The position numbers and the translations under genes were made by a program. Below are positions 3,816-64,000 of a stretch of 64,000 nucleotides of DNA, in pieces. Source of the DNA: Candidatus Omnitrophota bacterium (lineage in GTDB: Bacteria > Omnitrophota > Omnitrophia > Omnitrophales > Aquincolibacteriaceae); contig JAUYMS010000047.1 in assembly GCA_030698625.1 (NCBI GenBank), positions 12,210 through 76,209 of the forward strand. Reading direction: 5' to 3'. Below the pieces are notes generated by a model. That model saw only the letters and a program-made list of their open reading frames with translations. It was not told the origin of the DNA and ran no database searches. Position 1 is the stretch's first letter. Each line of letters starts with the position of its first letter.

Positions 3816-3817
3816 TC

Positions 3818-44711: not shown

Positions 44712-44732
44712 GATTTTAAATATCGGCGTTTT

Positions 44733-44776
44733 GTGGAAAAAAGAAACCCACCCCGCTTTAGAGCGAGGTGGGTTTC
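44733..44776 (-). terminator. Rho-independent terminator downstream of the pilin gene
   Basis: A perfect 11-bp stem AGAAACCCACC/GGTGGGTTTCT with a 14-nt loop, followed on the minus transcript by a UUUUUU tract. Confidence 0.7.
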
Positions 44777-44802
44777 TGAACACATATGCACTTGACGAAA
44801 CG

Positions 44803-45279
44803 TTACGCGATTGGTGTTCCGTCAGCACAACCGTCTGCATCGCCAGTCGGAGGATCTTCCCCTTCGACCGAACCGACAACAACACCACTCTGATCCACAC
44901 AGTACGTGTTTACAGCTGAGTTGTCATCAAACGGTTCTGCGAATGCCGAATAACTGTTGGGAGTATCTTCACCCCCGCCAGTATAAGTCACGGTAAAACC
45001 ATGCTTCTGATCCTCCGTCCATGACGAATCCAAATAGGACGGATCAGCATCAATTAATGCATCTAAATCTTCGGCATACTCGGGAGGATTCTGCGCAGCC
45101 CGAAAACTCTCGTTGGCTGAGCTGAATGCTCTCAGATCCGTCTTAACCGCACCTTCATTTGCGTTAATTCTGGCGCGAAGAAGATTCGGAATCGCAATCG
45201 CCGCTAACAGACCAATAATAGCTACGACAATCATGATTTCTACTAAGGTGAAACCTTTCTGATTTAGTTTACGATACAT
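44803..45279 (-). CDS. pilA: Type IVa major pilin (prepilin N-terminal cleavage/methylation domain)
   Basis: KGFTLVEIMIVVAIIGLLAAIAIPN; a C-terminal Cys pair (D-region); an AGGAGG RBS upstream. Confidence 0.85.
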   Translation of the reverse strand: MYRKLNQKGFTLVEIMIVVAIIGLLAAIAIPNLLRARINANEGAVKTDLRAFSSANESFRAAQNPPEYAEDLDALIDADPSYLDSSWTEDQKHGFTVTYTGGGEDTPNSYSAFAEPFDDNSAVNTYCVDQSGVVVGSVEGEDPPTGDADGCADGTPIA

Positions 45280-45324
45280 ATCTACACCTCCTAGGGTATT
45301 TTATTAATCGTACTTGTTAGTATT

Positions 45325-45354
45325 ATACCTGTATAAATCCCATTAACGCAAATT
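45325..45354 (-). promoter_or_regulatory. Putative sigma-70 promoter for the pilin gene
   Basis: On the minus strand: TTGCGT-N18-TATAAT about 55 nt upstream of the ATG. Confidence 0.35.
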
Positions 45355-45497
45355 CTTACAAAACTAATATTCATGTTATTCCTATACTTACTTTAGGGCT
45401 AAAACAATCTCCTTTACCCTTATCCCATAGTGATTTGGCCGCCCTAGAGGTGGTCCCAAGGCCCTGAGAGCCGTGCAAAAATAATTCGCTCCCGGCC

Positions 45498-46727: not shown

Positions 46728-46740
46728 TACCCGTTTTCTC

Positions 46741-48450: not shown

Positions 48451-50204
48451 GCCGCTTTCTTCTCCTCGCTCTTCTGGTCATTTGTCGACACGCGGTAGAT
48501 TTCCTCCACAGTTGTCTCACCTTCCAGCGCTTTGGCCACGGCGCTTTGCCTCAGAGTCGTCATTCCTTGCCGAACAGCGATCGCCTTCAAGTCATCTGAA
48601 GAGGCGCCTTGCATGATCCCCGCCATGACGGTAGGCGTCATTTCCATAATCTCGGTAATCACCCGCCGGCCCTGATACCCCGACTGGCGGCAGCGCACAC
48701 ATCCCTTAGCCTTATAAAACTGATGTGTTTTAGCGGGATCCAGCCCAAGATCTTTGACGAGGTCAGCTTCTGCTTCATAGGTATAGCGACACCTCTGGCA
48801 TATGCGCCTCACCAAGCGTTGGGCGGATACCATAATCACCGTCGACGCGATCAAGAAGGGCTCAAGCCCCATGTTGACCATACGGGTAATCGAACTCGGC
48901 GCGTCATTGGTGTGCAGTGTACTCAGCACCAGATGACCGGTCATGGCAGCCTTAACGGCAATGTCCAAAGTGTCCGTGTCACGAATTTCGCCGATCAGCA
49001 CGATATCGGGGTCCTGGCGCAGAATCGAGCGCAGTGCCGCGGGAAAGGTTAGTCCGATCGCCTCTTTCACATTCACCTGATTGATCCCGTGCACTTGATA
49101 TTCCACGGGTTCTTCCACCGTCGTGATGTTGACTTCCGGTTTATCCAGAAATTTCAACACAGAGTACAGCGTCGTGCTCTTTCCGCTACCCGTCGGGCCC
49201 GTCACCAGAATCATGCCGTGCGGTTTGCGCGAGCAATCCTTAATGATCTGCTGTTCCCGGTCACTGAAACCTAGCTTGGTTATGTCGTGACCCTGATTCG
49301 AGGTGTCCAGGATACGCAAACACACCTTTTCCCCGAAACTCGACGGCAAGATACTCACGCGCAAATCGACACTTCGCTTTTCTACCCGCACTTTAATGCG
49401 GCCGTCCTGCGGCACCCGATGTTCGGCGATATTGAGATCGCTCATGATCTTCACACGCGAAACAATGGCCGGCCCCATTCCGACAGGCGCTTTTATGAGC
49501 TCTTCGAGCATCCCGTCTACACGCACCCTCACTCTGACAAAGTTTTCCCATGGCTCGATGAAAATATCGCTCGCTTTCCTCTTGATGCCCTCAAGCAAGA
49601 CCATATTCACAATCTTGATGGTCGGCGACTCATGGGCCACCTTCGCCAGTTCCGCTTCCTCCGCGGCGGATTCCCCCGGATCTTCCATATCAATCATCTT
49701 GACCAAATCGTCGAGTTCTCCCCCGCGATCTTCGGTCTCGATATCCGGTGCATCGGTTTTCTTAAGGCTATAGTACTTTTCGATAAGCTTTCTCAGCGTG
49801 GCATAGCCGGCCACGCAGGCGCGAATCCGCAGGCCGGTAATAGCGTGGATCTCATCGATGGCTGCGAGGTTGGTCGGGTTGGCAAAAGCTACGGTCAGTG
49901 TCTTCTCATGCTGGCTGATCGCGAGAGCCGTGTATTTCTCCGCGACCTCCTTCGGGAAGCTGGCAATAACTGCATCGTCAATGATAAAGACGGTGGGATT
50001 CGTGAGGGTGTACCCAAACTCTTTGCTCAAGACACGGGCAAGTTTTTTCTCGTCAAACTTGCCCTTCTCAAAAACGGCATCGATGAGCGATTTCTTACCG
50101 TGTTCGGCTTCCATGAGCGCTTCGTGGAGGTCTTCGGCGCTCATGACCTTCTCGCCGATCAGCGCTTTCTGCAAATCACCGTAATAGGAATCTTTAGAAC
50201 CCAC
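48447..50204 (-). CDS. PilB/GspE-family secretion ATPase (copy 2, tandem paralog)
   Basis: Walker A is LVTGPTGSGKSTTLY and the tetracysteine is CQRC...CVRC. Overlaps copy 1 by ATGA. Confidence 0.85.
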   Translation of the reverse strand: MGSKDSYYGDLQKALIGEKVMSAEDLHEALMEAEHGKKSLIDAVFEKGKFDEKKLARVLSKEFGYTLTNPTVFIIDDAVIASFPKEVAEKYTALAISQHEKTLTVAFANPTNLAAIDEIHAITGLRIRACVAGYATLRKLIEKYYSLKKTDAPDIETEDRGGELDDLVKMIDMEDPGESAAEEAELAKVAHESPTIKIVNMVLLEGIKRKASDIFIEPWENFVRVRVRVDGMLEELIKAPVGMGPAIVSRVKIMSDLNIAEHRVPQDGRIKVRVEKRSVDLRVSILPSSFGEKVCLRILDTSNQGHDITKLGFSDREQQIIKDCSRKPHGMILVTGPTGSGKSTTLYSVLKFLDKPEVNITTVEEPVEYQVHGINQVNVKEAIGLTFPAALRSILRQDPDIVLIGEIRDTDTLDIAVKAAMTGHLVLSTLHTNDAPSSITRMVNMGLEPFLIASTVIMVSAQRLVRRICQRCRYTYEAEADLVKDLGLDPAKTHQFYKAKGCVRCRQSGYQGRRVITEIMEMTPTVMAGIMQGASSDDLKAIAVRQGMTTLRQSAVAKALEGETTVEEIYRVSTNDQKSEEKKAA

Positions 50205-50208
50205 AACT

Positions 50209-50688
50209 TCAACCCGCTTTTTTTAGTTTCTTCGTTTTTGATTGAGATGCGTTAGCAAGATCTATGAGTTCTAGAATTTCTCCGCTCGTCGACATAAATA
50301 CCTGCGGCTTCTTTTTCGTTTCCTGACGCGCCCGCTCAACACCCGGACAATGCAACGGATCTGAAACCGCTAAATAGATTCGCTGCTCGTCAACATCGAA
50401 GGCCACCATGGCGTGCTCCCGGCAAAAATCGGCATCGAATAGACGGACGGCGTCCATGTTAATCGAGTAATTTTGTAGGGCGATGAACGGAACCTTGAGC
50501 TGCTTACCAAGGGCTCCGATCAATTGTTCCTCCGAAATATGGCCCTGCTGCAGGAGAATGCGGCCGAGCAGACCGCCTTCCCCCTCCTGAACGAGGAGAG
50601 CTTCCTGGATATTCTCGTTCGTAAGCAGACCATCCTCGAGAAGGATCTCGCCCAAGCGTTTGCTTGAACTTTCCCCCATAATAAACAA
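50209..50688 (-). CDS. Stand-alone MshEN/T2SSE_N domain protein (predicted c-di-GMP receptor)
   Basis: Two tandem 24-aa motifs: RLGEILLEDGLLTNENIQEALLVQ and LLGRILLQQGHISEEQLIGALGKQ. Both fit RLGxxLLxxGLLxxxxLxxxLxxQ. Confidence 0.7.
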   Translation of the reverse strand: MFIMGESSSKRLGEILLEDGLLTNENIQEALLVQEGEGGLLGRILLQQGHISEEQLIGALGKQLKVPFIALQNYSINMDAVRLFDADFCREHAMVAFDVDEQRIYLAVSDPLHCPGVERARQETKKKPQVFMSTSGEILELIDLANASQSKTKKLKKAG

Positions 50689-50838
50689 GTATAGCCAGAG
50701 AGATTTGCATTTACAAGTTATGCCGTGACTCTTATTTAATTGAATTGTTATATATTGATATCAGATGATACTGTAACCATAAATATGTTAAAAAACATTA
50801 CTAACAATAATTTCAAACCAATCAGCAGGAGAGCCAGA

Positions 50839-51525
50839 CTACAGGTAGGTTCTGAGGGGGCATTTCTCGCAGTGAGCGACTCGCGCTTTACAGTAGTCTT
50901 TGGCCACATTCACAATCTGTGCATGGTAGTCATTAAAAAGCGGCACGCTCTTAGGGAGGGCAGCTACGAAAAGCGACTGCCACTCGTGATAATCCGCCTC
51001 TAATTTGTGCAGGTGATGCCGGGAAAATACGCGCTTGGTATAGGTGTCAATCACGAAATGAGCCTTCCCGGCCGCATAGAGGAGAATAGAATCCGCTGTC
51101 TCCGGACCAATGCCGTTCACAGCAAGAAGCTCTTCCCGCAATTTGCTGCCGTTAACCGCAAACATCCGGTTCAGGCTTCCTTTATACCGAAGAAACAGAT
51201 AGTCAATGAAACACTTCAAACGCTTTGCCTTAACATTAAAGTAGCCGGCAGGACGAATCAAACGTGCGAGCGACGAATGGGTCATCTCCTTTAGCGCGCA
51301 CGGGCTTAACTTTTTGGCAGTCTTCAGATTGGCAATCGCTTTTTCGACATTCGTCCACGCCGTATTTTGCGTGAGGATGGCACCCACGATGACTTCAAAT
51401 GAGGTTTCCCCGGGCCACCAGTTTTGGTGGCCGTTAATGCGGCGCATCGTGCGGTACACACGCGCAAGGTCACGCGGCTTAAGTGCCCTTTTAGCCGGAG
51501 AGCGGAAATGTTTCAAGCGGCTCAT
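50839..51525 (-). CDS. Endonuclease III-related HhH-GPD domain protein
   Basis: LLAVNGIGPETADSILLYA HhH-GPD motif and a C-terminal Cys cluster. Start preferred at MSRLKHF. Confidence 0.6.
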   Translation of the reverse strand: MSRLKHFRSPAKRALKPRDLARVYRTMRRINGHQNWWPGETSFEVIVGAILTQNTAWTNVEKAIANLKTAKKLSPCALKEMTHSSLARLIRPAGYFNVKAKRLKCFIDYLFLRYKGSLNRMFAVNGSKLREELLAVNGIGPETADSILLYAAGKAHFVIDTYTKRVFSRHHLHKLEADYHEWQSLFVAALPKSVPLFNDYHAQIVNVAKDYCKARVAHCEKCPLRTYL

Positions 51526-52060
51526 AGCGGGGGCCCCCGGGGGCGGGAAGGCTCTGGTATAAAATAATTTTATCGATGATACGCGTTTCGGTCGGCTGCA
51601 TCTCAACGGCGTCCAAGCTTCCGACCGCGCTTTCTCCTTTGCGCGTTCGGCCCACAGTCACATGCGGACGAAACGGCCGTTCTTCCACAGGGAAACCCCT
51701 GAGCTTTAACGAATGTTCGAGACTCTGCTGCATAGTCAGTAAATCATCGAGTTTGCCGCCGAGGCCAATCCAGGTAATGCGCGGCTGCTGCTGATTCGGA
51801 AAGTAGCCCACCTCCCGCAGGTTGACCGCAATCGGCGCGCATTTTTCAGCCAGGGGCCCGGCAACATCTTTGATCACCGCGACATCATCACGGGAAGTAC
51901 GGCCGAAGAAATGAAGTGTCACATGTGTGTTTTCCGCGCGCACCCAATTAATGCCGTCAACCCGGCTGCTGATAAACTCGAGGAAAAATTTGATTTCTCT
52001 CGGGAAGGATTCTGCAATCGGCAGGGCCAGGAACGTACGCAGGTTCTCTTCAGGCATCAC
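51491..52060 (-). CDS. thpR: RNA 2',3'-cyclic phosphodiesterase (2H family, ThpR/LigT)
   Basis: Two H-x-T/S-x motifs: HVTLHF and HVTVGR. Confidence 0.8.
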   Translation of the reverse strand: MMPEENLRTFLALPIAESFPREIKFFLEFISSRVDGINWVRAENTHVTLHFFGRTSRDDVAVIKDVAGPLAEKCAPIAVNLREVGYFPNQQQPRITWIGLGGKLDDLLTMQQSLEHSLKLRGFPVEERPFRPHVTVGRTRKGESAVGSLDAVEMQPTETRIIDKIILYQSLPAPGGPRYEPLETFPLSG

Positions 52061-53291
52061 GTCTCAATTGACGCCACAAGTACTCCAATGCCTTCATGGA
52101 CGCCTTCTGCTGAACCTGATGACGGTCGCCCCAAAACTCATGCTGCCACACCCGCGAGCGCTTTCCGTTCGCAAGAGCGATATAAACAAGTCCCACCGGC
52201 TTCTTTCGCGTACCGCCGTCGGGACCCGCGACACCGGTGATCGCAATGCCATAGGTTGTTTTGAGTTTTCGGCGAACGCCTTCGGCCATCTGTAAAGCAA
52301 CGTCATCGGAAACCGCGCCGTACCTCCGCAAGTCGGCCGGAGACACGCCGAGGAGGTCCTCTTTGACGGCATTGGTATAGGAGACAATACTCCCCTTGAA
52401 GTACTTGCTCGCGCCCGAGACTTTCGTGATCTCAGAAGACAGCAGTCCCCCGCTGCAGCTTTCCGCCGCCGAAAGTGTCTTTCTGCTTTTTGTTAAAAGC
52501 TTTCCGACTGCCTCCGGAAACTTGATGTCTTCATAGGCGTAGACAGAACTCCCCAACCGCCGCCTCACCATCGCCTTCAAACGAGCCACCGTTGCCCGCC
52601 TCGGTGCATAAATCCGTATCGAAACTTCCCCGACATGCGGATAGATTCCAAACTCGAACTTTTCGCGGAAAAAACCCTTCCCCAACTTCTGCATGATTTC
52701 CGGTTCCGAGATGCCCACAAACTTTGCCACGAACGGGACCTTGGGTTTCACCCGCCGGAAGTGCCTGAGCGCGAGCGGCTTAACGCGGTGCGCGAACATC
52801 TTCTCCAACTCACGCGGCACTCCGGGCAAAACCACAATCATCCGGCTGCCGCACACGATATAAAAACCGAGAGCAATGCCGTGGCGATTCACGAGCGGCA
52901 CCGCATTATCGGGAAAAAGAGCCTCACGCCTTACCAGTTCCGGTACAACCTTATGACGCTTGGCGTAGTACTTCGTAATTTGGTTGTATTGAGTTTTGGA
53001 GAGGACGAGGGGTACCTGAAAAAACTCGGCGACACCGTCTCGCGTGACATCGTCAGGCGTGGGCCCCAACCCCCCCGACATAATGACAAGATCAGAGCGC
53101 GAAATCGCAGTGGCAATGCGCTCGCAAATCTCTTCAACCTCATCCGGACAGCTCCCCTGGGCCTTCACATCAAAGCCCAGTTCGGTGAGTTCCCGCCCCA
53201 GGAATTTGGCGTTGCTGTTCAGGACGCTCCCTTTCAACAGCTCATCGCCTATCGTAATGAGCTCTGCGGTGTGTCTCCCCGGAACCTTCAT
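52050..53291 (-). CDS. cinA: CinA-family protein (MoCF-like N-domain + nicotinamide-nucleotide amidohydrolase C-domain)
   Basis: N-terminal ITIGDELLKGSVLNSNAKFLG and C-terminal AESCSGGLLSSEIT. Confidence 0.85.
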   Translation of the reverse strand: MKVPGRHTAELITIGDELLKGSVLNSNAKFLGRELTELGFDVKAQGSCPDEVEEICERIATAISRSDLVIMSGGLGPTPDDVTRDGVAEFFQVPLVLSKTQYNQITKYYAKRHKVVPELVRREALFPDNAVPLVNRHGIALGFYIVCGSRMIVVLPGVPRELEKMFAHRVKPLALRHFRRVKPKVPFVAKFVGISEPEIMQKLGKGFFREKFEFGIYPHVGEVSIRIYAPRRATVARLKAMVRRRLGSSVYAYEDIKFPEAVGKLLTKSRKTLSAAESCSGGLLSSEITKVSGASKYFKGSIVSYTNAVKEDLLGVSPADLRRYGAVSDDVALQMAEGVRRKLKTTYGIAITGVAGPDGGTRKKPVGLVYIALANGKRSRVWQHEFWGDRHQVQQKASMKALEYLWRQLRRDA

Positions 53292-54307
53292 GCGAACACC
53301 CACCACATAATCAGCCAAGCATAAAAGCCCGCAACCAGATCATCGCAAAGAATGCCCCAATACCCCGGTAGTCTTTCCGCGCGCCGCGCAGGAAAGGGTT
53401 TCCAGATATCGAAAAGGCGAAAGAGCAGAAATCCGGTAAGCAACGACAAAGGCGAAAGCGGGATGAGCAGAAAAGTCACGAACATTCCTGCGCCTTCATC
53501 GACGGTGACAAAAGACGGGTCCTTATTTTGACTCAAATCCAGGCGCGAGACCGCCCAATAACCGGCCCAAGCGATTGCCGCGCCCGTCAGGATATAGAGC
53601 CACACGCTGTGGGCGGTCAAGAGAATGAGAGGGATAACAAAGAGACTGCCCCACGTGCCGGGAGCGATGGGTAACAAACCCACGCCCATCGCAGAAGTGA
53701 ACTTTGCAAATGACGGGCTTTGCAAGATTTCGCGATTAGCCGCAAAAACAGAGTAGCCCGAAACGAGGGTGAGTATTAGGGTGATAATCAAAGTTCCGAA
53801 CATGGTCCACCGGAGACTTTCTGTGATGAGTTCCGAGAGGCCGAGGTCTAAAGCCACCACATACGCTATCGCGAAAGCAAGCACCACGACCTGAAAAGTC
53901 AGCTTAACCTTGCCGAGCATCTCGGCGCCTACCGCCTTCTTATCAATCAGCCACCCAATACGGCAAAACGTAACAATCAACTCCCGCGCAAAAATCGGGA
54001 CAAGCCAATACCCCGAATACAGGCCGCGCAAGCTGAAAGCCGCAAGCGTGGTCAGAATAAGCACCTTATCGGCAATGGGATCCATAATCCTGCCGAAATC
54101 GCTCTCGAGGGAAAGTTTGCGGGCGAGATAACCGTCGAAGTAGTCGGTCACTGCGGCCACCGTAAAAATAATCGCTGCCCAGATATGGGCCGTCAGTGAA
54201 TTACTGAGGATAAGGAACGGCAGACTGAGGCTCAGAAGAATGCGCAGGTAGCAGAGAATATTCGGGGGTTGTAACAGCTCGCGTCTACCGCTCGCCCAAG
54301 AGGTCAT
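53288..54307 (-). CDS. pgsA: Fusion: CDP-diacylglycerol--glycerol-3-phosphate 3-phosphatidyltransferase (PgsA) + phosphatidylglycerophosphatase A (PgpA)
   Basis: CDP-alcohol phosphatidyltransferase motif DYFDGYLARKLSLESDFGRIMDPIADK. C-terminal PgpA motifs LPIAPGTWGSL and VDEGAGM. Confidence 0.7.
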   Translation of the reverse strand: MTSWASGRRELLQPPNILCYLRILLSLSLPFLILSNSLTAHIWAAIIFTVAAVTDYFDGYLARKLSLESDFGRIMDPIADKVLILTTLAAFSLRGLYSGYWLVPIFARELIVTFCRIGWLIDKKAVGAEMLGKVKLTFQVVVLAFAIAYVVALDLGLSELITESLRWTMFGTLIITLILTLVSGYSVFAANREILQSPSFAKFTSAMGVGLLPIAPGTWGSLFVIPLILLTAHSVWLYILTGAAIAWAGYWAVSRLDLSQNKDPSFVTVDEGAGMFVTFLLIPLSPLSLLTGFLLFRLFDIWKPFPARRAERLPGYWGILCDDLVAGFYAWLIMWWVFA

Positions 54308-55619
54308 ATTCCCTGCACCCTGTGATGCGAACCGGATAAAACTCTCCGATTCGGAGTTCCTGCTTCGGGCTGCGCACAATCACATTACCGTCTACTTCGG
54401 GTGCATCCATCTCTGAACGGCCGATCCACTGCTGGGAATCTTTTTCGTCCCGCTCTTCAACCAAGACTTTGAGAGTTTTTCCGACCATGCGCTCGTTGTT
54501 TTCAAGCGAGACGCTTTGCTGCAGCCGCATGGCTCGATCCAAGCGGTCTTGTTTAACGTCTTCGTTGATCTGATCGCCGAGCTTCGCGGCCGCTGATCCC
54601 TCTTCCTGCGAATACGTGAATATACCGAGACGTTCAAACTTCATCTCTGCCATGAATGCCATGAGCTCCTCAAAATCTTCTTCCGTCTCACCGGGGTATC
54701 CCACAATAAAGGTCGTGCGAATTGCCAAATTCGGAACCGTCTCGCGAAACTGCCGGAGCAGATCCACGGTCCGCCGCTTTGTGATGCCGCGATTCATGGC
54801 AGTGAGCATGCGGTCGCTGGCGTGTTGCAGCGGCATGTCCAGATACTTGCAAACCCGGTCGAGATCGCGCATGGCTATCATCAGATCCTTGTTAAGGCAT
54901 GAGGGATACGCATAGAGTACGCGAATCCACTCCAGCTCGGATATGCCGTTAAGCTCATGGAGGAGCCTCGGCAGAAGATATTCGCCGCCGTGATCTCGTC
55001 CGAAGTAGGACGTATCCTGCCCCGTGAGGACGAGTTCTTTGGCGCCGCTCCTTGCCAAGCCCTGAGCCTCGAGCACGACGTCCTCGATGGTTCGGGAACG
55101 ATGTTTGCCGCGAAAAGACGGGATCACACAGAAGGCGCAAGTATGATCGCAACCTTCTGATATTTTCAAATACCGGTAATGCGCGGGGGTCAACGCGATG
55201 CGGTTCTCGCCCGAGGTCGTCAGATAACCGGGCCTGCCGATCTCGAAAACCTTCTTGCCGGCAGCAACCTCGTCCACGATCTCGGCGATCTTTTGATACT
55301 CCCCCGACCCCACGAACGCGTCCACCTCTTTGAGGTCTTTTTGCAATTCGCGCGGAAAACGCTGCACGAGGCAGCCCATGACGATGACCGCTCGGATCTG
55401 TTTCTGTTTCTTGAGTTCAATCAACTCCAGAATGCGGTCGACTGACTCCTGCTGAGCCTCTTGAATGAATGCGCAGGTATTGAGCAACGCAATATCACAA
55501 TCCGTGACCGAATCCACGATCTCATACCGGGATGCGGGAAGCTTGCCGAGAATGACTTCACTATCAACCAGGGTTTTGGGACAGCCGAGTGAAAGCATCC
55601 CGATCTTTACATGAGTCAT
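54285..55619 (-). CDS. rimO: Ribosomal protein S12 methylthiotransferase RimO
   Basis: An MTTase N-domain, radical-SAM CDHTCAFC, and a TRAM domain. Start preferred at MTHVKIG (55619). Confidence 0.85.
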   Translation of the reverse strand: MTHVKIGMLSLGCPKTLVDSEVILGKLPASRYEIVDSVTDCDIALLNTCAFIQEAQQESVDRILELIELKKQKQIRAVIVMGCLVQRFPRELQKDLKEVDAFVGSGEYQKIAEIVDEVAAGKKVFEIGRPGYLTTSGENRIALTPAHYRYLKISEGCDHTCAFCVIPSFRGKHRSRTIEDVVLEAQGLARSGAKELVLTGQDTSYFGRDHGGEYLLPRLLHELNGISELEWIRVLYAYPSCLNKDLMIAMRDLDRVCKYLDMPLQHASDRMLTAMNRGITKRRTVDLLRQFRETVPNLAIRTTFIVGYPGETEEDFEELMAFMAEMKFERLGIFTYSQEEGSAAAKLGDQINEDVKQDRLDRAMRLQQSVSLENNERMVGKTLKVLVEERDEKDSQQWIGRSEMDAPEVDGNVIVRSPKQELRIGEFYPVRITGCREYDLLGER

Positions 55620-55659
55620 TGATGTGGGGTTTGTGGTTTTCATGGGAAAATTGGCTCGT

Positions 55660-55668
55660 ATTATAGCA
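55660..55668 (-). promoter_or_regulatory. Possible extended -10 promoter (TGCTATAAT) for rimO
   Basis: Located in the 61-bp gap between the giant ORF stop and the rimO start. No good -35 element. Confidence 0.3.
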
Positions 55669-55680
55669 TATTTAGCGGGA

Positions 55681-58600
55681 TTATGCCGCAGCGGCGGCGA
55701 ATTCGGCGAAGCGCTCGGCATCCAGCATAGCCGAGAGGAAGGCGTCCAGGCCTATAAGGGCCGCTGCGTCGCGAGCATAAAAGCGATCATCTGCGCCCTG
55801 GAGGAGGAATCGAGCTGCTTCATCAACCTCGGTGGCATTCAACAGAAGCGCCGAAAAGGCCCCCGCCACAAAAGAACCCAGGTGGCGGCGGATCTGAGTC
55901 GCGTCTATCGGCAACGCCTCACCGCTCGGGAGGCGGTTAGTCACCACACTCACATGGGGCGGTATCTGCGACTCAAGCCCCCCCTCAAAAGAGGCGGTTG
56001 CGGCGAAAGCCACCTGGCGCCCTGAGAGCAGGGCCGCACCCAATCGCTCGAAATCGGTACGCCCGGTGAGGCGTATCCGCGGTCGCAGGCTTCTTAGCTC
56101 GGAGCGAAATCCTGCCAACTTTTCATCCAGAATACGCGCAAACAGCCTGCGAAAGTCTCGAATATTATCTCCATCGACAAGAACGACAACCCCGTGCTCA
56201 CCCGATTCGTTTCGGATAAGCGATCCGATCACTGCGTCCACATAGATTTCCATTTCGTCCGCGGTAAAATCCTGCGGTACCACCGACACAACTGTAAGCG
56301 GAAGATCGCTGTGTCGAATCGCATCACTCACGAGGACTTCGTTCGGGCTCAAGGCGCGGACTACCGCGGCTGGTAATATTTCTGCGACAATCGCACTGCG
56401 AACCTCCGGGCCGACATTCAAACCGGCAAGATTCTGCAGAAATCTGGCGACACTCGCACGCGTCTCAAATCTCACTTCGACACTTTTGTTCGCTTCGTTC
56501 TGCTCACGCAATTCCGATCTCTGAAACGCGAAGTGAACCTCCGCCCCGTCTCTGGCCCTCTCCTGTTGGACATGGTCTCGCAGGGCCTGCTCCGAGGCGG
56601 CCGTATCTCCGCGCCTCCCGGCAATGGCGCGCAAGGACTCCTGCGTTTCCGAACTGAGGAGCAGTCGCGAAAAGGCCGTCCGAAGCGACTCGGCGTCACT
56701 AGGCCCCGACGCCAAAAAGCGTTTGAGCGTGACTTCAAAAATGGCCTCACCGCCATTTTCACCTCGCGCAAAGAGCCCGAAGGCCGCGAGCACCTCTCCG
56801 TCCCCATGGCTCAAATTCCAGTCCCGTGAAAACTGAAAACGATGCCGCTCGCCAGCGCTGAGGCGGCTTTCCAACGCGCCGACCAATCCGGTTAAGAAAT
56901 CGTCAAAAGCAGCAAGGACAGCGAATTTCCCGCCGTTGACCTGAGTCACCTTGGCAAGTTGCCGCGCCACATCCGCCGCTTCTGCCCCTCTATCAGAATC
57001 CTTCAATTCCCGCTTGAAATCCCTAAGAGATTTGCCGTCCCTGACCGGAATTCCGATGATTAGCTCCTCCGCCAGGGCCTCATTGCCGGATTGTCCGTAC
57101 TTTGAAAAATCCACGGCTGAGGGATTCGCGCGCTCACCTGTGAGCATTAGAAGGTCGGATTCGACTTCATCTGCAAAGACATCCTTCCCCAGGTTCGCCT
57201 CCACGTATTGCTGAGCGGTTAGTTCCAGAGACGGGAGTGCTTTCTTGCCGCCGATCTCCAGATCGCCCCGGGCATAAAGTGTCGCAACCGCGTGATACAC
57301 ATTGTAGGCCGCAATCCGCGCGAAAGAACTGCGGTCCTTAGCCGCAAAGTTTTCGGCATAGACGGCTTCGCGAAGCCGGGGATCCGCATCAAATGTCTGC
57401 TTCACCCAAGCCGGCGTATTCCCGAAGAACAGTTCCACTTTCTCGTCAAAGATACTGCGCCGATTTCCGTTCTCATCCGGCGTTTTCACGTGAAGCATCA
57501 GCGCCGCAAAGAGTTTCGCGTCACTCCCGTACGCCTCCCACCGCTCGGCGGCAATAGCTTCAGCCCTGCCGCTGTTGATATGATCCGCATCACTGAGGAC
57601 CTGTGGATCATTAAGCGGAAGCTCCGCACTCGACTGAAAGAACCTGGGGCTACCTAATAATCGCTCATAAGTTGGCAACAGCCCCGGCGCGTTGAAGTCA
57701 CCGCGGCGGTAAGCATCCGCTGCGGCACTCAAGGTCCCTACAGCCACCTCCACCCTGTGTTCTTCCGGATAGAGAAGTGCCGTACGGGCCTCCGTCGGTT
57801 CTGTCCCCGCCACGAAATCATAATTGATTCCGTTCGCACGCACCCACTCCACGAAAACGGTTTCCGGAACATAGGCAAACAATTCACGCTTTCCCGGATC
57901 TTGGATATACAGTCTATTGATCGTTACGCGGGAAATACCATACTCGCCCTGCCTAACGTTCAGGGCGCCGTAACTCGCAAGATCTACCTGCGGGTCGTGA
58001 ATCGCAACATTTAGGGGAGCGCCATCCGCATCCACAAAGATAATTTCGACTTCCTCCGGACTCACGGCACCCACGTATTTCATGAGATTGTAGCGAATAC
58101 TGCGGTCTTCCAAATCGGCACGGCGTCGGCCTTCAGGGGTGTTCTCAACGTATTTGATGCGCTCGATCAACGTCCCCTTGTATTTGTTCTTAGGATCCTC
58201 ATATACCTTAAACGACAGAACACGCGGGACAACACGTCCAACGGGATCCCGCTCGGCAAGAATATGAAGTTCGTACACCTTTCCATTAATTCCCGTGCGG
58301 ACAGTCACTTCATCGGTGTCTTCATAGATCGTGTAATTCCCGACCCCAAAGAACCCGGAACTCTTGGTCTCATCCATCAATCCCTGGCTTTCCAACCAAT
58401 CATGAATCTGGGAAGCCGGCGTCGACGGATCCTCGAGCATCCGAACGATCTCTGCCGTCACCTCATTCAACCGGTCTTCCTCCAACTTACCGACGAGGGC
58501 TTTGATGATTTTCCGGGCGATGTCCTCAGCCGGCCCGCCCCGGTCAACCAGAGTTTGGATGAATTCCAGCGGTGACTTCGTGGTTGCCTGCGGCGGAATA

Positions 58601-61600
58601 AATTTCTTGATCAAAATTTCAGGCTCCATCCCGTGAGCATCTTCAGTGGTGGTTTTGTGGAGGAGCTTTCCGTCTGAGGTCCGCCGGTGAAGAAAACTGC
58701 GCACCCTCACCTGCCGCTTCCCCCCGAATCGCTTGAATTCCACCTCCGGGTCGACGTCGGGATTTCTCGTAATATCACGCGCGTTCTGAATGATCTCGCG
58801 TAACATAACCATACCGGGCTGGCGTTGTCTTTCAATGGTGGTAATGACCTCGTCGCGGTAAGCCGGATGCGAGGAGCTCTTCCACGCGTTCCACAGCGCT
58901 ATCGTGACCCTCTGACGGGGGAATTTCTCCAGACCGGAACGCGTCTGAAGAATATCCACCAATTCACTCAATCCGTAATCTTCCTCGCCGCTCAAATCAG
59001 GGACCCGGTCTACCCAGCCCTGAACATCATCCCTCAATCTGCCGTCGCTAAAATTGATCCCCAAATCGATCGCGCCCTGTTTATCGCTTAAAGCGACCGC
59101 TCCGGTCGCAAAGTTCGCCAGAACAGTTGCCGGCTCCGTTTCATTGCGAAAGGCATTTAGAAACGCGGCTGCGACGCGCGGCGCATTGAAGGTGCCCGTT
59201 CTGTCCTGCTCCCCAAGTATATTCACGAGCACGTCAAGACCCAGGTCGTCGCGATTCACCCAAGCTTCAAAAGCAGCCGATACGCCCGCCCGGACCTTGG
59301 CGTCGTTCAGATCGTAGCCAAATGCGATAGCGCCTTGCTCATCACGAAGCGCCACACGCCCCAACACATAGGGTGCGAGGGATCGTTTGAAGGACCGGAT
59401 CATTCCGCTTTGAATATCGGGGCGCCCGTTCACATAAACATTTCTTTCCCGCAGATTTTCAGCCGCATCCACCAGCCACGCCAATTCAAAATCATTTCGT
59501 CCGAGCCAAGTGCTGACATCCCCTTCCGCCAAATCACCTTCGAGGACAAGGTCGTCATCCTGAGCCAAGTTGTGCTCAGCCTCTTCTTTAAGCACTTCCT
59601 TGCCGGCAAGGTACTCCGCCCAAGTCCTGCCGGGAAACGGGAAGATGCTGTCAACATTGGGTTGTTTCGGGTCATTAAAACGCCACAGCTCCAGCAGGCG
59701 AGATCCGTATCCTTCCGGGCTTTCTACCAGGTAGGCATAAAGCTCGTTGGTTGTGTTGAGGTTTCCATTCCTCCGCAGATCATCGGCCACCAGTCCAAAA
59801 AGCCGCTCCAGAAAATCGTCCGCATTCTCAAAGGGCCTCGTCCCTTTGTCGTGGAAAAACGCCAGATACGGACCGCTGCGAGTTAGAACCGCATTAGCGA
59901 GCGTAAAAACCGGGGTTAATTGCGCGAGCAGCTTGAGATCCTGCGCAAGTTCCAGGACTTCCTCACCCGCCTTACGCGTCGCGGGACTGAGCGACGCTTG
60001 CGGGCCGAGATAGAGATACAAGGGCGAAAAGGTTGTCGGCGCTTCAACGATATGCTTGTCGCGCTTCTCGTCCGTCGGCTTGGCAATTTCGTAAGACGCG
60101 CTCTTGCCGGCTTCCGCAAACTTCTCGGCAACGCTGCCCTCAACCTTGGCTCCAATCCGAACACTCGCCGCGTCTTTAAGACCGGCCGCATTCATCTGCG
60201 GTAATGTGTTTTCATCCACCTTGTATCGGAATTCTCCCACTCCGTTTGCGGCTTCGTTGCCCGCTGCCGGCCGCCACATGCGGAACAGAGCGCCCAACAC
60301 CGCGAGCTCGGCATCGTCCCCCTGACTCTGATGGTATTGGTAAAGATGCCGGAGCAAAGATTGATTGTCGTAGTTGAGCACATGATTCAAGTAGTAGAAG
60401 TCGACCGCGGCGCCATTGGCGCGAATCGCTTTGAGGTTCCCCTTATAGAGATTCCAGGCAAGCCCGTTGATGATCTTTCTGGATTTCGACTTTTTCGGGG
60501 CGCCCAGGGAGTCCAGCAGCTTTTTGATCCTTTTCAAGTTTCTGCGATAACCGAAAAACGCGGCAATCCCCTGCCCGACATGAAGGAATGCCCGCACCAC
60601 GAACATGATCAGCCCGCCTATCAGCGTAAACAGAACGAAGCGGATCGGAGCAACCACCAAAACGCCAAAGACAATCCCGATGCGGTTAGCAATAAACCTC
60701 GGTCGCGTATACGGATTCTCTGCGAGATTTGCCTCCCAGCTGAACCGGAACCACGTCGACGGGTTTTCGCCCTTGGCGTCGGAATCCCGGCCGTAAACGT
60801 CCACTTGCCCCTTATTACCGCTCAACCACGCATCCACGGCCGCAGCTTCGGCAACGTCGCCGGAATCAGGGACACCGATCAGGGCCTCAAAATACGTGCT
60901 TCTCTCCGCATTCAACCAACCATTCTCATCAGGAACGATCTCAACAATCGCGAACTGGAAGCCCAAGTAACCCGCGACGATGCCGCGCAGTAATGCCGCT
61001 GCTCGCGGCGTAGCGCGAATCAACCGGCCGCGCCCCGCAATATCGCCGGCCGCCTGTGCCCAGCTCGCATGTCCTTCCCTGCGCGCGAGATCATCTTTTC
61101 CGTCCGCAGCGTTAACCTCGAGGATTATGTGCCTTCGCGTAAAATCATCGAGCACGCGTAATTTCTCGGCAGGCGACGCATCGCGATAAGCGTCCAGTTC
61201 GCTGCCAAAAAATTGCGCCAGCCCGGCGCGCTCGTTTTCAGGCAATGGACTCCCTGCAATGTGGACCCCAACGTCGCTCGGCGCATAATTCCAGAGGTGA
61301 TAGCTGATTTCGACAAGATCGCCCTTATTAATGCCTTTCCCGACCACCACATGACTGTTTTCGACTTTGGATTCGATGGGAACCCTGATCTCGTTGCCGT
61401 CTCGTTGCACCGCATAACCGTCCTTGTCAGTCTTGATCAAAGTTACGCTGACCCCGCCATGCGCATCATCATCGGCGATAGTCCCACGCGGAATATGGTA
61501 CAGAGCAATACGGGGGGTTAGAATGTAGTCCCTAAAAACCACGTTGACAGGCTTTGACGAAGACCGTTTTATTTCCTCTGATAATCTGCTTTTCGGGGGA

Positions 61601-64000
61601 ACCCCCTGCCAGTGCCAATTCCCGTCTTCATCCAGGTTGCTGTAGACCGCACGAATTAAGGACTCGGTTTTAGGCAAATCGGCAACACTTCCGTACGCTG
61701 GGTAAGTCGAAGAAATTTCTGCCGCGTCACGCGGACCGCTCGTGATCGTCTTCGGCAGGCTCTTCCGGAGCGGTGAGCTATGCCCCGGACCATTTTCTAG
61801 AAGTCTGCGCGCCGCCGCGTCGTCGCGATTCAGCTTTGCCCGCGAGAACCAACCGGCCACGCGTACCATCCACGACCAAATAGCTGAAGCAATGCCCGTC
61901 ACAAATTCATAGAGCCCAACAAAAATCGACCCGTAAAATGCCAGGGCCTCCCAGGCCAGATGCAATGCATAGCGGATGCGGCCGTTAAGATTCTCCTTCA
62001 AGTTTTTGTCCCCTTCAAAGAGAAACCATTGCACCCGGGAATTACCGCCGGGCGCAGTCTGAGAACCGTAACGAATCACACCGTTGTCCTCCGTCGCAAA
62101 ATCATTTGCCTCATCCACGAGGGTCTGGTCCTGGCTCCCGTAGGGCACGCCGATTAACGCCTCGTGATGCACTTGGTTATATGCATTGAGCTCACCCTTC
62201 TCTCCGGTTTCCGTACTGGCGACCAGGGCAACGTGCAGCCCGAGATAGCCGGCAAGAAGGGCGCGAATCAGTGCTACACCGCTTTCATCGGCACGCACAT
62301 GGCCGTGGCGGCTGATGATGTATTCGATCTTTCTCGCCCACGAAACTTGGTCAGCCGAAAACTTCAACAAGTCGCGCCTATTTTCTGACGCGTTATCGAT
62401 AATCACGTATCGCGATGTGAACTCATTGATAAAGCGCAATTTTTCGGCCGGCGTCGCATCGCGATAAGCGTCGAGGCCCAAGCGCTGTCCAAAATAGTCT
62501 TTCATGGCTTCAGCTTCATTTGCAGGAATGCCGAGCGTCGGTAAATTCAGCTCGACCTGATCTTCGCTGTATCGCCACACTTCATAGCGAATAAAAACCG
62601 TCTGCCCGACTAGTTCGGCAGGCAGCGTTACCTTTCCGTTCTGTACGCCGACCCATGCAACCCATTCCCCTTTATGATCTCCGCTATCGGTGGTAATCTG
62701 CTTGAATATTTCGACCTGGTCCGGGTAATAACCTTCCTTTCCGTCGGCTTTTTTCTTTTTGCCGCCTATTTCGCCCCGGGCATAGGTATACAGCTCGATC
62801 CCGCGCGTGGCGGGAATTCCTTCAATCACGAATTGATGACGGTTTTCCGCGGGAGGCCCGACCCGCGGAAAGACTAGCGCCGTGCTCGGGACTTTCTGCC
62901 ATACTCCTATTTGGTTAAGCGACGCGTAGTAACCGCGAATAACGCGCTCACCTTTTGGGTGATTCGAAATACTGCCGTAAAGTCCGAAGATCCCCTTTGA
63001 CCTGTCGTGTTCGTTCTTGTCCGCACTCACATGAAGCGTCGGCAGCGCTTGCTCAAGAGGCGGAGCGTGGGGTGATTGCGTTGTGCCGCGCCGTTTCTTA
63101 TTGTCCGCTTCGTTGTATTCCTTTCTGCCTGCCCTGAATTTGAACAGTGAAACAATAAATGCAATGAGTCCGATTATCCCAAAGAGACCCGTAAAAAAGT
63201 ACGCGGCCACCACGTCACCGGTATCAAGCGGTGATGTCTGCACGCGAAGGGGCGCCGTCGTTTCGATGGACTTCCAGTACTTATTGCCCGTACCGTCCCA
63301 ATCCCCGAACGCCGCCAGCTTCGCATGGCCATCCTTATTGGCATCAAAGTGTCCCTCCGCATCCGGAGACACAACCGCCTGGTAGGCGATGGGAATGCCC
63401 GCACGCTGCAGGAATACTCCGGCGGCCGCACATGAAGAATTACATATAAACAAGGCATCTCCTTCTTCGGCGCCGGTATAAGCCTTATTCCGCTCGATGG
63501 CGGCAGCAATAGCCTTGGCCACCGGCATGTAGCCATCCAAGCTAAATGCCCCCTGCCGTGGAGTCGCCGTGAGGTCATAGGCCGCGTGATCGGCAAGCCA
63601 CTGCAGAGTAATCTCCAGGGCCCTTTGGTCCGTGGCCCCTCTGAGCTGCCGAGCAAGATCCGGGAAGTACTTGTCGACAGCGGCATTTTGCACTCGGATA
63701 TTTTCGGGATCATTTTCAGCCAGATCGATGACGATGTCCGTCGGATCGTAAAAATTCGATTCCGTTTCGATTCGGATATGCCCCTTATGACTTAGAGTGA
63801 TCTCATCACCATTACGGGCCCAGTCTTGGCCCTCAACAAGCTCGGTGCCCCGTTCCTGCCCCGTGCTATCGGATTCGAATACGCGGACTCCTGTGATAAT
63901 GCCGGAGTGCGGGTTGTAAAGCGGAAAGGTTTGTCCGTCACGAACTTTCCCGAAAAATTCCGCTTGTATCGGTTCGGAGTTCAGCCGCGAAGCACCGGCT
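55681..64000 (-). CDS. Giant multi-module membrane-associated protein of unknown function (more than 2,770 aa; 5' end lies beyond the window)
   Basis: The frame is open with no stop from 55,681 to the window end. The ORF-track start at 63,693 is only the first GTG after the window edge. At least 3 TM helices, each ending a tandem ~425-aa module. Hsp90/sacsin/MORC-like GHKL motifs lie at ~58.3-58.8 kb. Confidence 0.75.
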   Translation of the reverse strand, partial: AGASRLNSEPIQAEFFGKVRDGQTFPLYNPHSGIITGVRVFESDSTGQERGTELVEGQDWARNGDEITLSHKGHIRIETESNFYDPTDIVIDLAENDPENIRVQNAAVDKYFPDLARQLRGATDQRALEITLQWLADHAAYDLTATPRQGAFSLDGYMPVAKAIAAAIERNKAYTGAEEGDALFICNSSCAAAGVFLQRAGIPIAYQAVVSPDAEGHFDANKDGHAKLAAFGDWDGTGNKYWKSIETTAPLRVQTSPLDTGDVVAAYFFTGLFGIIGLIAFIVSLFKFRAGRKEYNEADNKKRRGTTQSPHAPPLEQALPTLHVSADKNEHDRSKGIFGLYGSISNHPKGERVIRGYYASLNQIGVWQKVPSTALVFPRVGPPAENRHQFVIEGIPATRGIELYTYARGEIGGKKKKADGKEGYYPDQVEIFKQITTDSGDHKGEWVAWVGVQNGKVTLPAELVGQTVFIRYEVWRYSEDQVELNLPTLGIPANEAEAMKDYFGQRLGLDAYRDATPAEKLRFINEFTSRYVIIDNASENRRDLLKFSADQVSWARKIEYIISRHGHVRADESGVALIRALLAGYLGLHVALVASTETGEKGELNAYNQVHHEALIGVPYGSQDQTLVDEANDFATEDNGVIRYGSQTAPGGNSRVQWFLFEGDKNLKENLNGRIRYALHLAWEALAFYGSIFVGLYEFVTGIASAIWSWMVRVAGWFSRAKLNRDDAAARRLLENGPGHSSPLRKSLPKTITSGPRDAAEISSTYPAYGSVADLPKTESLIRAVYSNLDEDGNWHWQGVPPKSRLSEEIKRSSSKPVNVVFRDYILTPRIALYHIPRGTIADDDAHGGVSVTLIKTDKDGYAVQRDGNEIRVPIESKVENSHVVVGKGINKGDLVEISYHLWNYAPSDVGVHIAGSPLPENERAGLAQFFGSELDAYRDASPAEKLRVLDDFTRRHIILEVNAADGKDDLARREGHASWAQAAGDIAGRGRLIRATPRAAALLRGIVAGYLGFQFAIVEIVPDENGWLNAERSTYFEALIGVPDSGDVAEAAAVDAWLSGNKGQVDVYGRDSDAKGENPSTWFRFSWEANLAENPYTRPRFIANRIGIVFGVLVVAPIRFVLFTLIGGLIMFVVRAFLHVGQGIAAFFGYRRNLKRIKKLLDSLGAPKKSKSRKIINGLAWNLYKGNLKAIRANGAAVDFYYLNHVLNYDNQSLLRHLYQYHQSQGDDAELAVLGALFRMWRPAAGNEAANGVGEFRYKVDENTLPQMNAAGLKDAASVRIGAKVEGSVAEKFAEAGKSASYEIAKPTDEKRDKHIVEAPTTFSPLYLYLGPQASLSPATRKAGEEVLELAQDLKLLAQLTPVFTLANAVLTRSGPYLAFFHDKGTRPFENADDFLERLFGLVADDLRRNGNLNTTNELYAYLVESPEGYGSRLLELWRFNDPKQPNVDSIFPFPGRTWAEYLAGKEVLKEEAEHNLAQDDDLVLEGDLAEGDVSTWLGRNDFELAWLVDAAENLRERNVYVNGRPDIQSGMIRSFKRSLAPYVLGRVALRDEQGAIAFGYDLNDAKVRAGVSAAFEAWVNRDDLGLDVLVNILGEQDRTGTFNAPRVAAAFLNAFRNETEPATVLANFATGAVALSDKQGAIDLGINFSDGRLRDDVQGWVDRVPDLSGEEDYGLSELVDILQTRSGLEKFPRQRVTIALWNAWKSSSHPAYRDEVITTIERQRQPGMVMLREIIQNARDITRNPDVDPEVEFKRFGGKRQVRVRSFLHRRTSDGKLLHKTTTEDAHGMEPEILIKKFIPPQATTKSPLEFIQTLVDRGGPAEDIARKIIKALVGKLEEDRLNEVTAEIVRMLEDPSTPASQIHDWLESQGLMDETKSSGFFGVGNYTIYEDTDEVTVRTGINGKVYELHILAERDPVGRVVPRVLSFKVYEDPKNKYKGTLIERIKYVENTPEGRRRADLEDRSIRYNLMKYVGAVSPEEVEIIFVDADGAPLNVAIHDPQVDLASYGALNVRQGEYGISRVTINRLYIQDPGKRELFAYVPETVFVEWVRANGINYDFVAGTEPTEARTALLYPEEHRVEVAVGTLSAAADAYRRGDFNAPGLLPTYERLLGSPRFFQSSAELPLNDPQVLSDADHINSGRAEAIAAERWEAYGSDAKLFAALMLHVKTPDENGNRRSIFDEKVELFFGNTPAWVKQTFDADPRLREAVYAENFAAKDRSSFARIAAYNVYHAVATLYARGDLEIGGKKALPSLELTAQQYVEANLGKDVFADEVESDLLMLTGERANPSAVDFSKYGQSGNEALAEELIIGIPVRDGKSLRDFKRELKDSDRGAEAADVARQLAKVTQVNGGKFAVLAAFDDFLTGLVGALESRLSAGERHRFQFSRDWNLSHGDGEVLAAFGLFARGENGGEAIFEVTLKRFLASGPSDAESLRTAFSRLLLSSETQESLRAIAGRRGDTAASEQALRDHVQQERARDGAEVHFAFQRSELREQNEANKSVEVRFETRASVARFLQNLAGLNVGPEVRSAIVAEILPAAVVRALSPNEVLVSDAIRHSDLPLTVVSVVPQDFTADEMEIYVDAVIGSLIRNESGEHGVVVLVDGDNIRDFRRLFARILDEKLAGFRSELRSLRPRIRLTGRTDFERLGAALLSGRQVAFAATASFEGGLESQIPPHVSVVTNRLPSGEALPIDATQIRRHLGSFVAGAFSALLLNATEVDEAARFLLQGADDRFYARDAAALIGLDAFLSAMLDAERFAEFAAAAA
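60480..62900 (-). repeat. Intragenic tandem duplication (period 1,278 bp) inside the giant ORF
   Basis: The 15-mer atcgcgataagcgtc occurs at 61180..61194 and again at 62458..62472, with about 40 nt of flanking near-identity. Protein blocks LDAYRDATPAEKLRF and LDAYRDASPAEKLRV; each copy ends in a TM helix. Confidence 0.8.

Follow-up and report, generated by a model that had tools for sequence, protein, structure and literature searches.

Locus and reading frame

The DNA analyzed here, referred to as the window, is a stretch of 64,000 nucleotides from contig JAUYMS010000047.1 of a Candidatus Omnitrophota bacterium, and its last 8.3 kb are occupied by a single giant minus-strand gene. Here, we report that the window carries the C-terminal part of a real 4,711-residue multi-pass membrane protein. 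By its conserved motifs, the C-terminal unit is an Hsp90/GyrB/MutL/MORC-type GHKL ATPase, with all residues predicted to bind and hydrolyze ATP conserved; the tandem modules ahead of it are predicted to have the fold of the TgpA periplasmic transglutaminase domain. Nucleotide coordinates are those of the window unless another locus is named, and residue numbers are those of the complete protein.

55,681-64,000, minus strand: 3' 8.3 kb of one gene, encoding residues 1,940-4,711 of the 4,711-residue protein
55,681-55,683, minus strand: stop codon; the frame is open up to the window edge

When translated, the minus-strand frame 55,681-63,999 runs through 2,772 sense codons before it reaches a stop, which bears out the single uninterrupted frame read in the original prediction, a note made from the sequence alone. 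The GTG at 63,693 is indeed merely the first possible start after the edge, and there are zero stops between it and the window edge. The full open reading frame, of which the note could say that it exceeds 2,770 residues, was retrieved as NCBI MDP3921396.1 (Q8R76_11390), a 4,711-residue protein labeled "hypothetical protein" in a Candidatus Omnitrophota metagenome-assembled genome (MAG) with a source contig of 119,864 bp. The window share of this protein (residues 1,940-4,711, the C-terminal 59%) is 100% identical to the record. Window 44,285-57,232, which takes in the last 1.55 kb of the gene, is matched without a single base difference in an independent Logan assembly (SRR13727534); the Logan contig with the rimO neighbor likewise breaks off inside the giant gene, and the exact full-length protein is absent from the contig index searched. 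These two records speak against a frameshift or assembly error. It is one gene and not several, as relatives at 31-35% identity to the C-terminal query share its domain order. The GC content is 0.54-0.57 in the last 8 kb of the window, almost wholly giant gene, versus 0.49-0.56 elsewhere, i.e., there is no sharp composition break. The motif and helix coordinates given earlier were correct within a few bases, and the view of a membrane-anchored protein with tandem modules is upheld.

C-terminal GHKL ATPase

The ATPase unit and the two domains that follow it lie at these positions:

58,132-58,854, minus strand: GHKL (Bergerat-fold) ATPase domain, residues 3,655-3,895
58,774-58,806, minus strand: N-box MLREIIQNARD with E3674, N3678, and D3681; REIIQNARD is residues 3,673-3,681
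58,627-58,644, minus strand: G1 box EDAHGM, a DxxGM variant, with D3726
58,360-58,593, minus strand: lid insertion of ~78 residues (3,742-3,819), absent from distant relatives
58,330-58,359, minus strand: G2 box SGFFGVGNYT (GxxGxG; GFFGVG is residues 3,821-3,826)
58,153-58,182, minus strand: GT motif, G3881-T3882
57,772-58,131, minus strand: second domain, β-rich and transducer-like, residues 3,896-4,015, from AlphaFold2 secondary structure
57,784-57,786, minus strand: Arg4011, in the transducer-like domain
57,457-57,771, minus strand: helical domain closing the conserved core, residues 4,016-4,120

Both the Bergerat α/β sandwich and the full set of N-box, G1, G2, and GT motifs were found in this unit. 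In the alignment of 26 core sequences (A1), Q3664, R3673, E3674, Q3677, N3678, D3726, G3729, G3821, G3826, G3881, and R4011 are invariant. Conservation was then counted in up to 51 aligned relatives: the N-box Glu and Asn are present in 48 of 48 each (E3674, N3678) and its Asp in 44 of 50; the G1 residues D3726 and G3729 in 47 and 48 of 48; the G2 glycines G3821, G3824, and G3826 in 50, 49, and 50 of 50; the Gly and Thr of the GT motif in 51 and 47 of 51; and R4011 in 47 of 51. The N-box therefore stands exactly where it had been placed, at columns that are invariant or near-invariant, and the G2 box is confirmed. The G1 box was also correctly placed, but it is not degenerate as had been thought: DxxGM is the family's own form. 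It is one residue shorter than a DxGxG-type G1 and aligns to D-N-G-V-G-M of HtpG.

Searched against the PDB, the A1 profile reaches the ATPase domains of HtpG (E = 7.9e-14), Grp94 (3e-12), TRAP1 (1e-10), and Hsp82 (2e-10). The alignment with Hsp90 spans the N-box, G1, the start of the lid, G2, and the 'DEVxVRT' segment, and is confined to the ATPase domain. HATPase_c_3 was matched below threshold in 5 of the 26 members and SACS in 2 of the 26. Taken together, the conserved columns and the Hsp90 profile matches place the GHKL motifs far beyond chance, which settles the question of chance agreement in favor of the earlier reading. About 65 profile positions between G1 and G2 are missing in distant members, so the lid insertion is lineage-specific.

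The structural model of the unit aligns 240-270 residues to two-domain GHL structures versus about 150-161 residues to ATPase-only chains, and MORC2, MORC3, and SMCHD1 are among its structural matches.

Transglutaminase-like modules

Upstream of the ATPase, three modules lie wholly or partly in the window:

63,220-63,999, minus strand: module M2, residues 1,940-2,199 in the window; the module starts at residue 1,883, outside the window
63,430-63,450, 63,316-63,333, and 63,256-63,270, minus strand: the M2 triad, Cys2125 (FICNSSC), His2164 (DGHAKL), and Glu2185 (SIETT), respectively
61,924-63,033, minus strand: module M3, residues 2,262-2,631; of the M2 fold family but without the catalytic Cys and His
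60,700-61,749, minus strand: module M4, residues 2,690-3,039; also of the M2 fold family, without the catalytic Cys and His

M3 and M4 are 29% identical over 411 residues (BLAST, E = 1.6e-42), while direct BLAST of M2 against M3 and M4 gave no significant similarity. The copies are bridged by M1, which lies upstream of the window (residues ~1,395-1,750) and resembles both M2 (E = 7e-17) and M3 (E = 3e-6) in chunked BLAST; furthermore, M1-M4 all match one family profile at E <= 1e-78. From the M1 link and the shared profile, the protein has four copies. The claim of at least three tandem modules thus stands, directly for M3 and M4 and through M1 and the profile for the most N-terminal copy, M2. 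The same profile finds one or two copies in 22 other family members; across the family, the number of modules is 1-4.

Only M2 keeps Cys-His-Glu; M1, M3, and M4 are without Cys and His, and two-copy relatives likewise have one intact and one degenerate module. Across the family, the triad is kept as Cys in 22 of 23, His in 24 of 27, and Glu/Asp in 25 of 26, within a C-terminal half whose consensus is ICNT...Y.GLP..YV...GHA...W...E(T)T. Pfam Transglut_core was matched below threshold in the modules of 9 of 24 relatives (best E 2e-4), with 0 matches in the protein itself. The best PDB sequence for the module profile is 4XZ7 (E = 0.0097), aligned across the Cys...His...Asp stretch.

The structure of one module, as had been proposed for a check, was predicted for M2, and the AlphaFold2 model is confident (pLDDT 92.3, pTM 0.88). 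Its best whole-length Foldseek match is the TgpA periplasmic domain (6G4H/6G49, E = 2.7e-7, TM-score 0.5-0.57). Weaker fold matches follow, namely 3KD4 (putative protease), TglA, TG2, PeiP, transglutaminase 3, and FXIII, with a LapD-LapG chain (4U65_E) further down. On this modeling, the modules are a β-sandwich plus a transglutaminase/papain-like core of the TgpA type, a predicted enzyme fold. Their TgpA-like identity and the single intact triad were missed in the original prediction.

N-terminal region upstream of the window

The 1,939 residues that the window does not show hold, beyond anything in the earlier note, the fourth module and a motif-permuted GHKL-like unit. The protein begins with a signal-peptide-like segment, followed by N1 (~540 residues), which has faint Tiki/ChaN and DUF5682 similarity only, and then by N2 (~460 residues, within residues 657-1,156), a GHKL-like unit present in 31 relatives. 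The motif order in N2 is permuted: N-box, G2 (GrFGxG), GT, and then G1 (DxGxGM). One relative, P0054, has its C-terminal core (residues 628-1,024) in the same permuted order. N2 of our protein has lost the N-box Glu (Gly681), which is kept in 26 of 30 relatives, and one G2 glycine, and so is probably hydrolysis-dead. If the fold is confirmed, N2 would be a naturally permuted Bergerat fold.

Membrane topology

Three hydrophobic segments follow the modules in the window:

63,142-63,213, minus strand: strong transmembrane helix after M2, residues 2,202-2,225; Kyte-Doolittle 19-mer value 2.46, K/R-rich C-flank
61,864-61,947, minus strand: weakly hydrophobic helix after M3, residues 2,624-2,651; Kyte-Doolittle value 1.48, two Glu; a possible transmembrane segment
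60,556-60,699, minus strand: 48-residue hydrophobic stretch, residues 3,040-3,087; Kyte-Doolittle values 2.57 and 1.73

Each of the three modules had been said to end in a hydrophobic helix. The places are right, and the first and third helices are strong; the helix between them is weak and possibly does not span the membrane. The helix noted near 60.65 kb corresponds to 60,595-60,681, within the 48-residue stretch, which is either one long transmembrane helix or a helical hairpin and is followed by a strongly basic flank (YRRNLKRIKK...). M1 has no following helix.

The sidedness of the intact module was evaluated in relatives of simple architecture. The transmembrane helix between N2 and the module has 6-8 K/R on its N-flank versus 0-2 on its C-flank, and the one after the module has 4-7 K/R on its C-flank versus 2-5 on its N-flank; the strong transmembrane helices of our protein follow the same flank-charge pattern. 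By the positive-inside rule, the intact module would be periplasmic, with N2 and the C-terminal ATPase cytoplasmic. M2 outside and the ATPase inside would agree both with TgpA (PMC3507681) and with the need of the ATPases for ATP.

Library searches and family

Neither the complete protein, nor its window part, nor sub-fragments gave a usable match in Pfam, NCBIfam, or PADLOC; the models of the last, for anti-phage defense, gave 0 matches at E <= 1. The models for adhesins, RHS proteins, polymorphic toxins, and sorted surface proteins (PEP-CTERM, LPXTG, T9SS) gave 0 Pfam and 0 NCBIfam matches. The lack of a sorting signal, which had been pointed out before, is thereby borne out (the C-terminus is ...FAEFAAAAA), and a membership in a known adhesin, toxin, or RHS family, named earlier as a possible refutation, is not seen in Pfam or NCBIfam. 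Against PDB sequences, the whole window protein gave nothing at E <= 10; the GHKL stretch alone gave sub-threshold HtpG matches (E ~0.4-0.5), with the N-box and the G2 box in the same order in both.

The family was found by an exhaustive HMMER search with residues 3,600-4,711 as the query against 1.84 billion cluster representatives. It returned 54 proteins at E <= 1e-3, of which 27 at E <= 1e-10, nearly all 2,000-4,400 residues long. These proteins form an unannotated family that counts no fewer than 54 clusters at 50% identity and has a shared core at residues 3,655-4,120, and the search answers the proposal that metagenomes be searched for homologs. Ten relatives that were looked up are unnamed or "hypothetical protein", so that the statement that no family could be assigned still describes the curated libraries. 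Please note that word-indexed homolog searches gave a different picture: the whole protein found only itself, and residues 3,600-4,010 found nothing, not even themselves. A search that loses its own self-match is uninformative in its negatives, and "no homologs" there does not mean an orphan. The A1 profile against a word-indexed set of 5.8 billion proteins had a bona fide Hsp90 (PF00183) as its sole match.

A scan of one genome per species gave 24 loci in Omnitrophota, Elusimicrobiota, Firestonebacteria, and unclassified MAGs, plus single matches in one actinomycete, one deltaproteobacterial MAG, and one Woesearchaeota MAG. For the contig binned as Woesearchaeota, horizontal transfer or a binning error is possible. 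One Elusimicrobia MAG has a 5,801-residue open reading frame of this family (L014, 1,274-18,679).

We are highly confident of the domain identities. The two enzyme folds that make up the family are both known ones. In the literature found, there is no description of TgpA-type transglutaminase modules and an Hsp90/MORC-type ATPase in one protein. The family, its ATPase with DxxGM and lid insertion, the TgpA-like fusion, and the apparently permuted second unit are new with respect to the libraries and the literature found.

Comparison with known systems

GHKL ATPases (Hsp90, gyrase B, MutL, MORC, and histidine kinases) are among the best-studied molecular clamps, and all known ones work, to our knowledge, in soluble compartments, where they act on DNA, chromatin, client proteins, or phosphotransfer. 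Members of the Hsp90 family (HtpG, TRAP1, Grp94, Hsp82) have an N-terminal ATPase followed by a middle domain. Here, in contrast, the ATPase unit is at the C-terminal end of a multi-pass membrane protein, its G1 is one residue shorter, it carries the ~78-residue lid insertion, and the Hsp90 C-terminal dimerization domain was not found; the Pfam HSP90 model (PF00183), which includes the middle and C-terminal dimerization domains, is unmatched in the protein and in the 26 relatives. The GHL/MORC ATPases (GyrB/ParE 43K, Topo II, Topo VI-B, MutL, MORC2/3, SMCHD1) show no significant sequence similarity, the whole-model TM-scores to them are 0.3-0.4, and their DNA-binding, TOPRIM, CW, or coiled-coil parts are not present here. 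The match to the sacsin repeat region (SR1, PDB 5V44) ranks below those to Hsp90, Topo II, or MORC; the SACS and HATPase_c_3 models were not matched above threshold, and, unlike sacsin, our protein is bacterial and membrane-bound and has no DnaJ, HEPN, or UBL domains. Features of sensor histidine kinases (HisKA/DHp plus a kinase-type CA domain) were not found.

TgpA is defined by an N-terminal DUF3488 multi-transmembrane domain and a C-terminal DUF4129. Neither was detected in our protein (Pfam, full protein, E <= 1), and only the fold of the periplasmic domain is common to both. TgpA is an essential inner-membrane protein of Pseudomonas aeruginosa with a periplasmic transglutaminase domain (PMC3507681). 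It (6G49/6G4H) likewise has a β-sandwich and a transglutaminase-like domain between transmembrane helices, and is the best whole-module structural match; however, the identity is 10-13%, and here the module is fourfold, with three copies degenerate, and fused to ATPases. In the LapD-LapG system, a periplasmic cysteine protease of the transglutaminase-like kind is governed through the inner membrane by a nucleotide-dependent switch on the cytoplasmic side. This is a functional analogy only: 4U65_E is a weak fold match, there is no homology outside the papain-like core, and LapD-LapG are two separate proteins that respond to a cyclic di-GMP signal and not to ATP hydrolysis.

Giant multi-transmembrane proteins of Omnitrophota have been described in two preprints (West-Roberts et al. 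2023 and a complete-genome preprint of 2026), with HATPase_c among the frequent domains. They come from the same phylum and are similarly very long, poorly annotated, and multi-transmembrane, with domains often seen by structure prediction only. Those giants, on the other hand, have >10,000-30,000 residues with SecA-DEAD, peptidase C39/S8, and carbohydrate-active domains, whereas the present family also occurs in Elusimicrobiota and others. Transglutaminase is mentioned in the text of neither preprint, and TgpA, GHKL, and sacsin are not mentioned in that of 2026.

Gene neighborhood

Downstream of the giant gene are rimO, a pgsA/pgpA-like gene, cinA, ligT, and an endonuclease III-like gene. rimO (54,285-55,643, minus strand) adjoins the giant gene as had been described, but the gap is 37 nucleotides with the public start at 55,643 (MKTTN...); the 61 bp given before would apply only with a downstream Met, a version that is not on record. 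A type IV pilus/type II secretion system (T2SS)-like cluster (~44,300-51,600, minus strand) with an MshEN-domain protein, two T2SSE ATPases, T2SSF, an N-methyl pilin, and PilM lies 4-11 kb downstream of the giant gene.

The neighborhoods of five related loci were compared with that of the window, and no partner gene is common to all of them; in most, the neighbors are unrelated housekeeping genes. A rimO/MiaB-like radical-SAM gene is one gene away and convergent in an Elusimicrobia relative (L026, 18,053-19,363) and is absent from the four other loci, so the rimO adjacency is probably a coincidence. The giant gene appears to stand alone, and the lack of a conserved partner points to a self-contained machine.

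Beside the closest relative (P0003) is another very long gene (>3,080 residues; L027, 26,164-32,159) with methyltransferase and PPDK_N-like matches, which fits the pattern of the giant multi-domain proteins described from Omnitrophota.

Proposed mechanism and alternatives

We consider an ATP-driven cytoplasmic clamp joined to a periplasmic cysteine transglutaminase/protease as the overall best explanation, and a reasonably probable one on the sequence and model evidence. How the two parts would be coupled across the membrane is proposed more tentatively, by analogy with the known behavior of GHKL clamps and TgpA/LapG-type enzymes. Briefly, ATP binding would close the lid and make the cytoplasmic ATPase dimerize, its partner being a second chain or the N2 unit of its own chain; the conserved Arg4011 of the second domain may sense the γ-phosphate; the movement would be relayed via the flanking transmembrane helices and would switch the periplasmic module on or off or reposition it; and this cysteine transglutaminase/protease module would act on envelope or surface proteins or peptides, with the degenerate M1, M3, and M4 possibly serving as substrate-binding or scaffolding units. 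A bolder version, in which N2 and the Hsp90-like unit lie on the same membrane side, bracket the module, close on each other intramolecularly on ATP, and gate the enzyme across the membrane as a single-chain GHKL machine, is in our opinion unlikely; if true, a GHKL clamp would here serve for the first time in the inside-out control of an envelope enzyme, and N2 would be the first Bergerat fold permuted in nature.

Several observations weigh against the explanation we prefer. The protein itself is without any Pfam match (the scan of the full protein gave no family at E <= 1), and ~1,150 residues (3,090-3,654 and 4,121-4,711) have no assignable fold. Against two-domain GHL structures, the ATPase model reaches low TM-scores of 0.3-0.4, owing to its lid insertion and domain orientation. 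With the weak helix after M3 and the 48-residue stretch that is a transmembrane helix or a hairpin, M3 and M4 may sit on opposite sides or both inside. A textbook signal peptide is found at most N-termini of the family, including that of our protein (residues 1-34), with no transmembrane helix between it and N2 except in P0037, which would put N2 outside and contradicts the positive-inside topology across the family. A few members have a signal peptide but no transmembrane helix at all.

In a rival explanation, the protein is an exported effector: the Sec signal peptide would take it out of the cell, the transmembrane helices would insert into a target membrane, and the protein would work on or in a host or prey with its ATP, with the module attacking the prey envelope or proteins. 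The absence of a transmembrane helix ahead of the first ATPase-like unit fits this, as do relatives that consist of a signal peptide, N2, and GHKL without transmembrane helices, the concentration of the family in Omnitrophota and Elusimicrobiota, the PeiP-type isopeptidases among the M2 fold matches, and the T2SS/type IV pilus cluster nearby; an association of giant Omnitrophota proteins with predation and the breakdown of cell walls has been reported (10.1101/2023.11.21.568195). However, the flank charges of the internal helices are those that the positive-inside rule predicts in the producer's own membrane, several relatives begin without a signal peptide, Pfam and NCBIfam gave no toxin, RHS, adhesin, or secretion-signal match, and no secretion partner is conserved beside the gene in the five other loci. 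We give the effector a small chance of being right.

Another rival is a membrane-tethered chaperone, i.e., a folding or holdase machine for the biogenesis of the envelope or of giant proteins, with the modules as non-catalytic client-binding domains. This seems improbable: nothing of Hsp90 beyond the ATPase domain was matched, no co-chaperone or DnaJ-like domain was found, and the triad of the retained module is strongly conserved across the family, which argues for catalysis.

Very improbable in our judgment is a conflict or defense system of the MORC/paraMORC type, in which the GHKL ATPase would sense invading nucleic acid or protein and trigger an effector peptidase. MORC2, MORC3, and SMCHD1 are structural matches, GHKL paraMORCs and transglutaminase-like peptidases are present in bacterial conflict systems (PMC3710099), and one soluble relative sits amid toxin-antitoxin genes; but PADLOC had no match, no DNA-binding domain was detected, the neighbors in most loci are housekeeping genes without restriction-modification, nuclease, or HEPN partners, and a build that is membrane-embedded and includes a TgpA-like periplasmic domain does not resemble the known MORC systems. 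Finally, a giant frame produced by mis-assembly or frameshift fusion of several genes, which the MAG origin and the existence of one 100%-identical full-length record only might suggest, has a negligible chance given the identical independent assembly over the 3' 1.55 kb, the smooth GC content, and dozens of relatives of 2,000-5,800 residues in other phyla with the same domain order in one frame.

If the coupling between clamp and periplasmic enzyme is true, trans-envelope control would be added to the known tasks of GHKL ATPases, and a hypothesis would follow for the role of TgpA-like proteins, whose function is unknown and which P. aeruginosa cannot do without. The family is largely restricted to phyla that are uncultivated, ultra-small, or host-dependent (Omnitrophota, Elusimicrobiota, Firestonebacteria), and there much of the unknown coding capacity lies in very long unannotated proteins. 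The proposal makes predictions at the level of single residues, i.e., E3674, D3726, and R4011 for the ATPase and C2125, H2164, and E2185 for M2.

Other regions of the protein

The remaining parts of the protein in the window are as follows:

59,380-60,549, minus strand: conserved region, residues 3,090-3,479, common to 8 close relatives
58,855-59,628, minus strand: three diverged ~85-residue repeats, residues 3,397-3,654, directly upstream of the ATPase
57,031-57,456, minus strand: diverged repeat of the C-terminal part of the core, residues 4,121-4,262
55,684-57,030, minus strand: C-terminal tail, residues 4,263-4,711, conserved in full in only a few clusters, ending ...FAEFAAAAA

Family profiles of residues 3,090-3,654 and 4,121-4,711 against the PDB, and Pfam scans of the individual members, gave nothing credible for these regions. 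Close relatives have about one copy of the ~85-residue repeat, which is without a match to a known fold. The very C-terminus (55,684-55,710) is of a kind seen in at least 15 of the 54 family proteins, whose last residues are -AA, -SA, or -QAA. Such ends resemble ssrA-type or Tsp-type recognition motifs and could be a degradation or processing signal.

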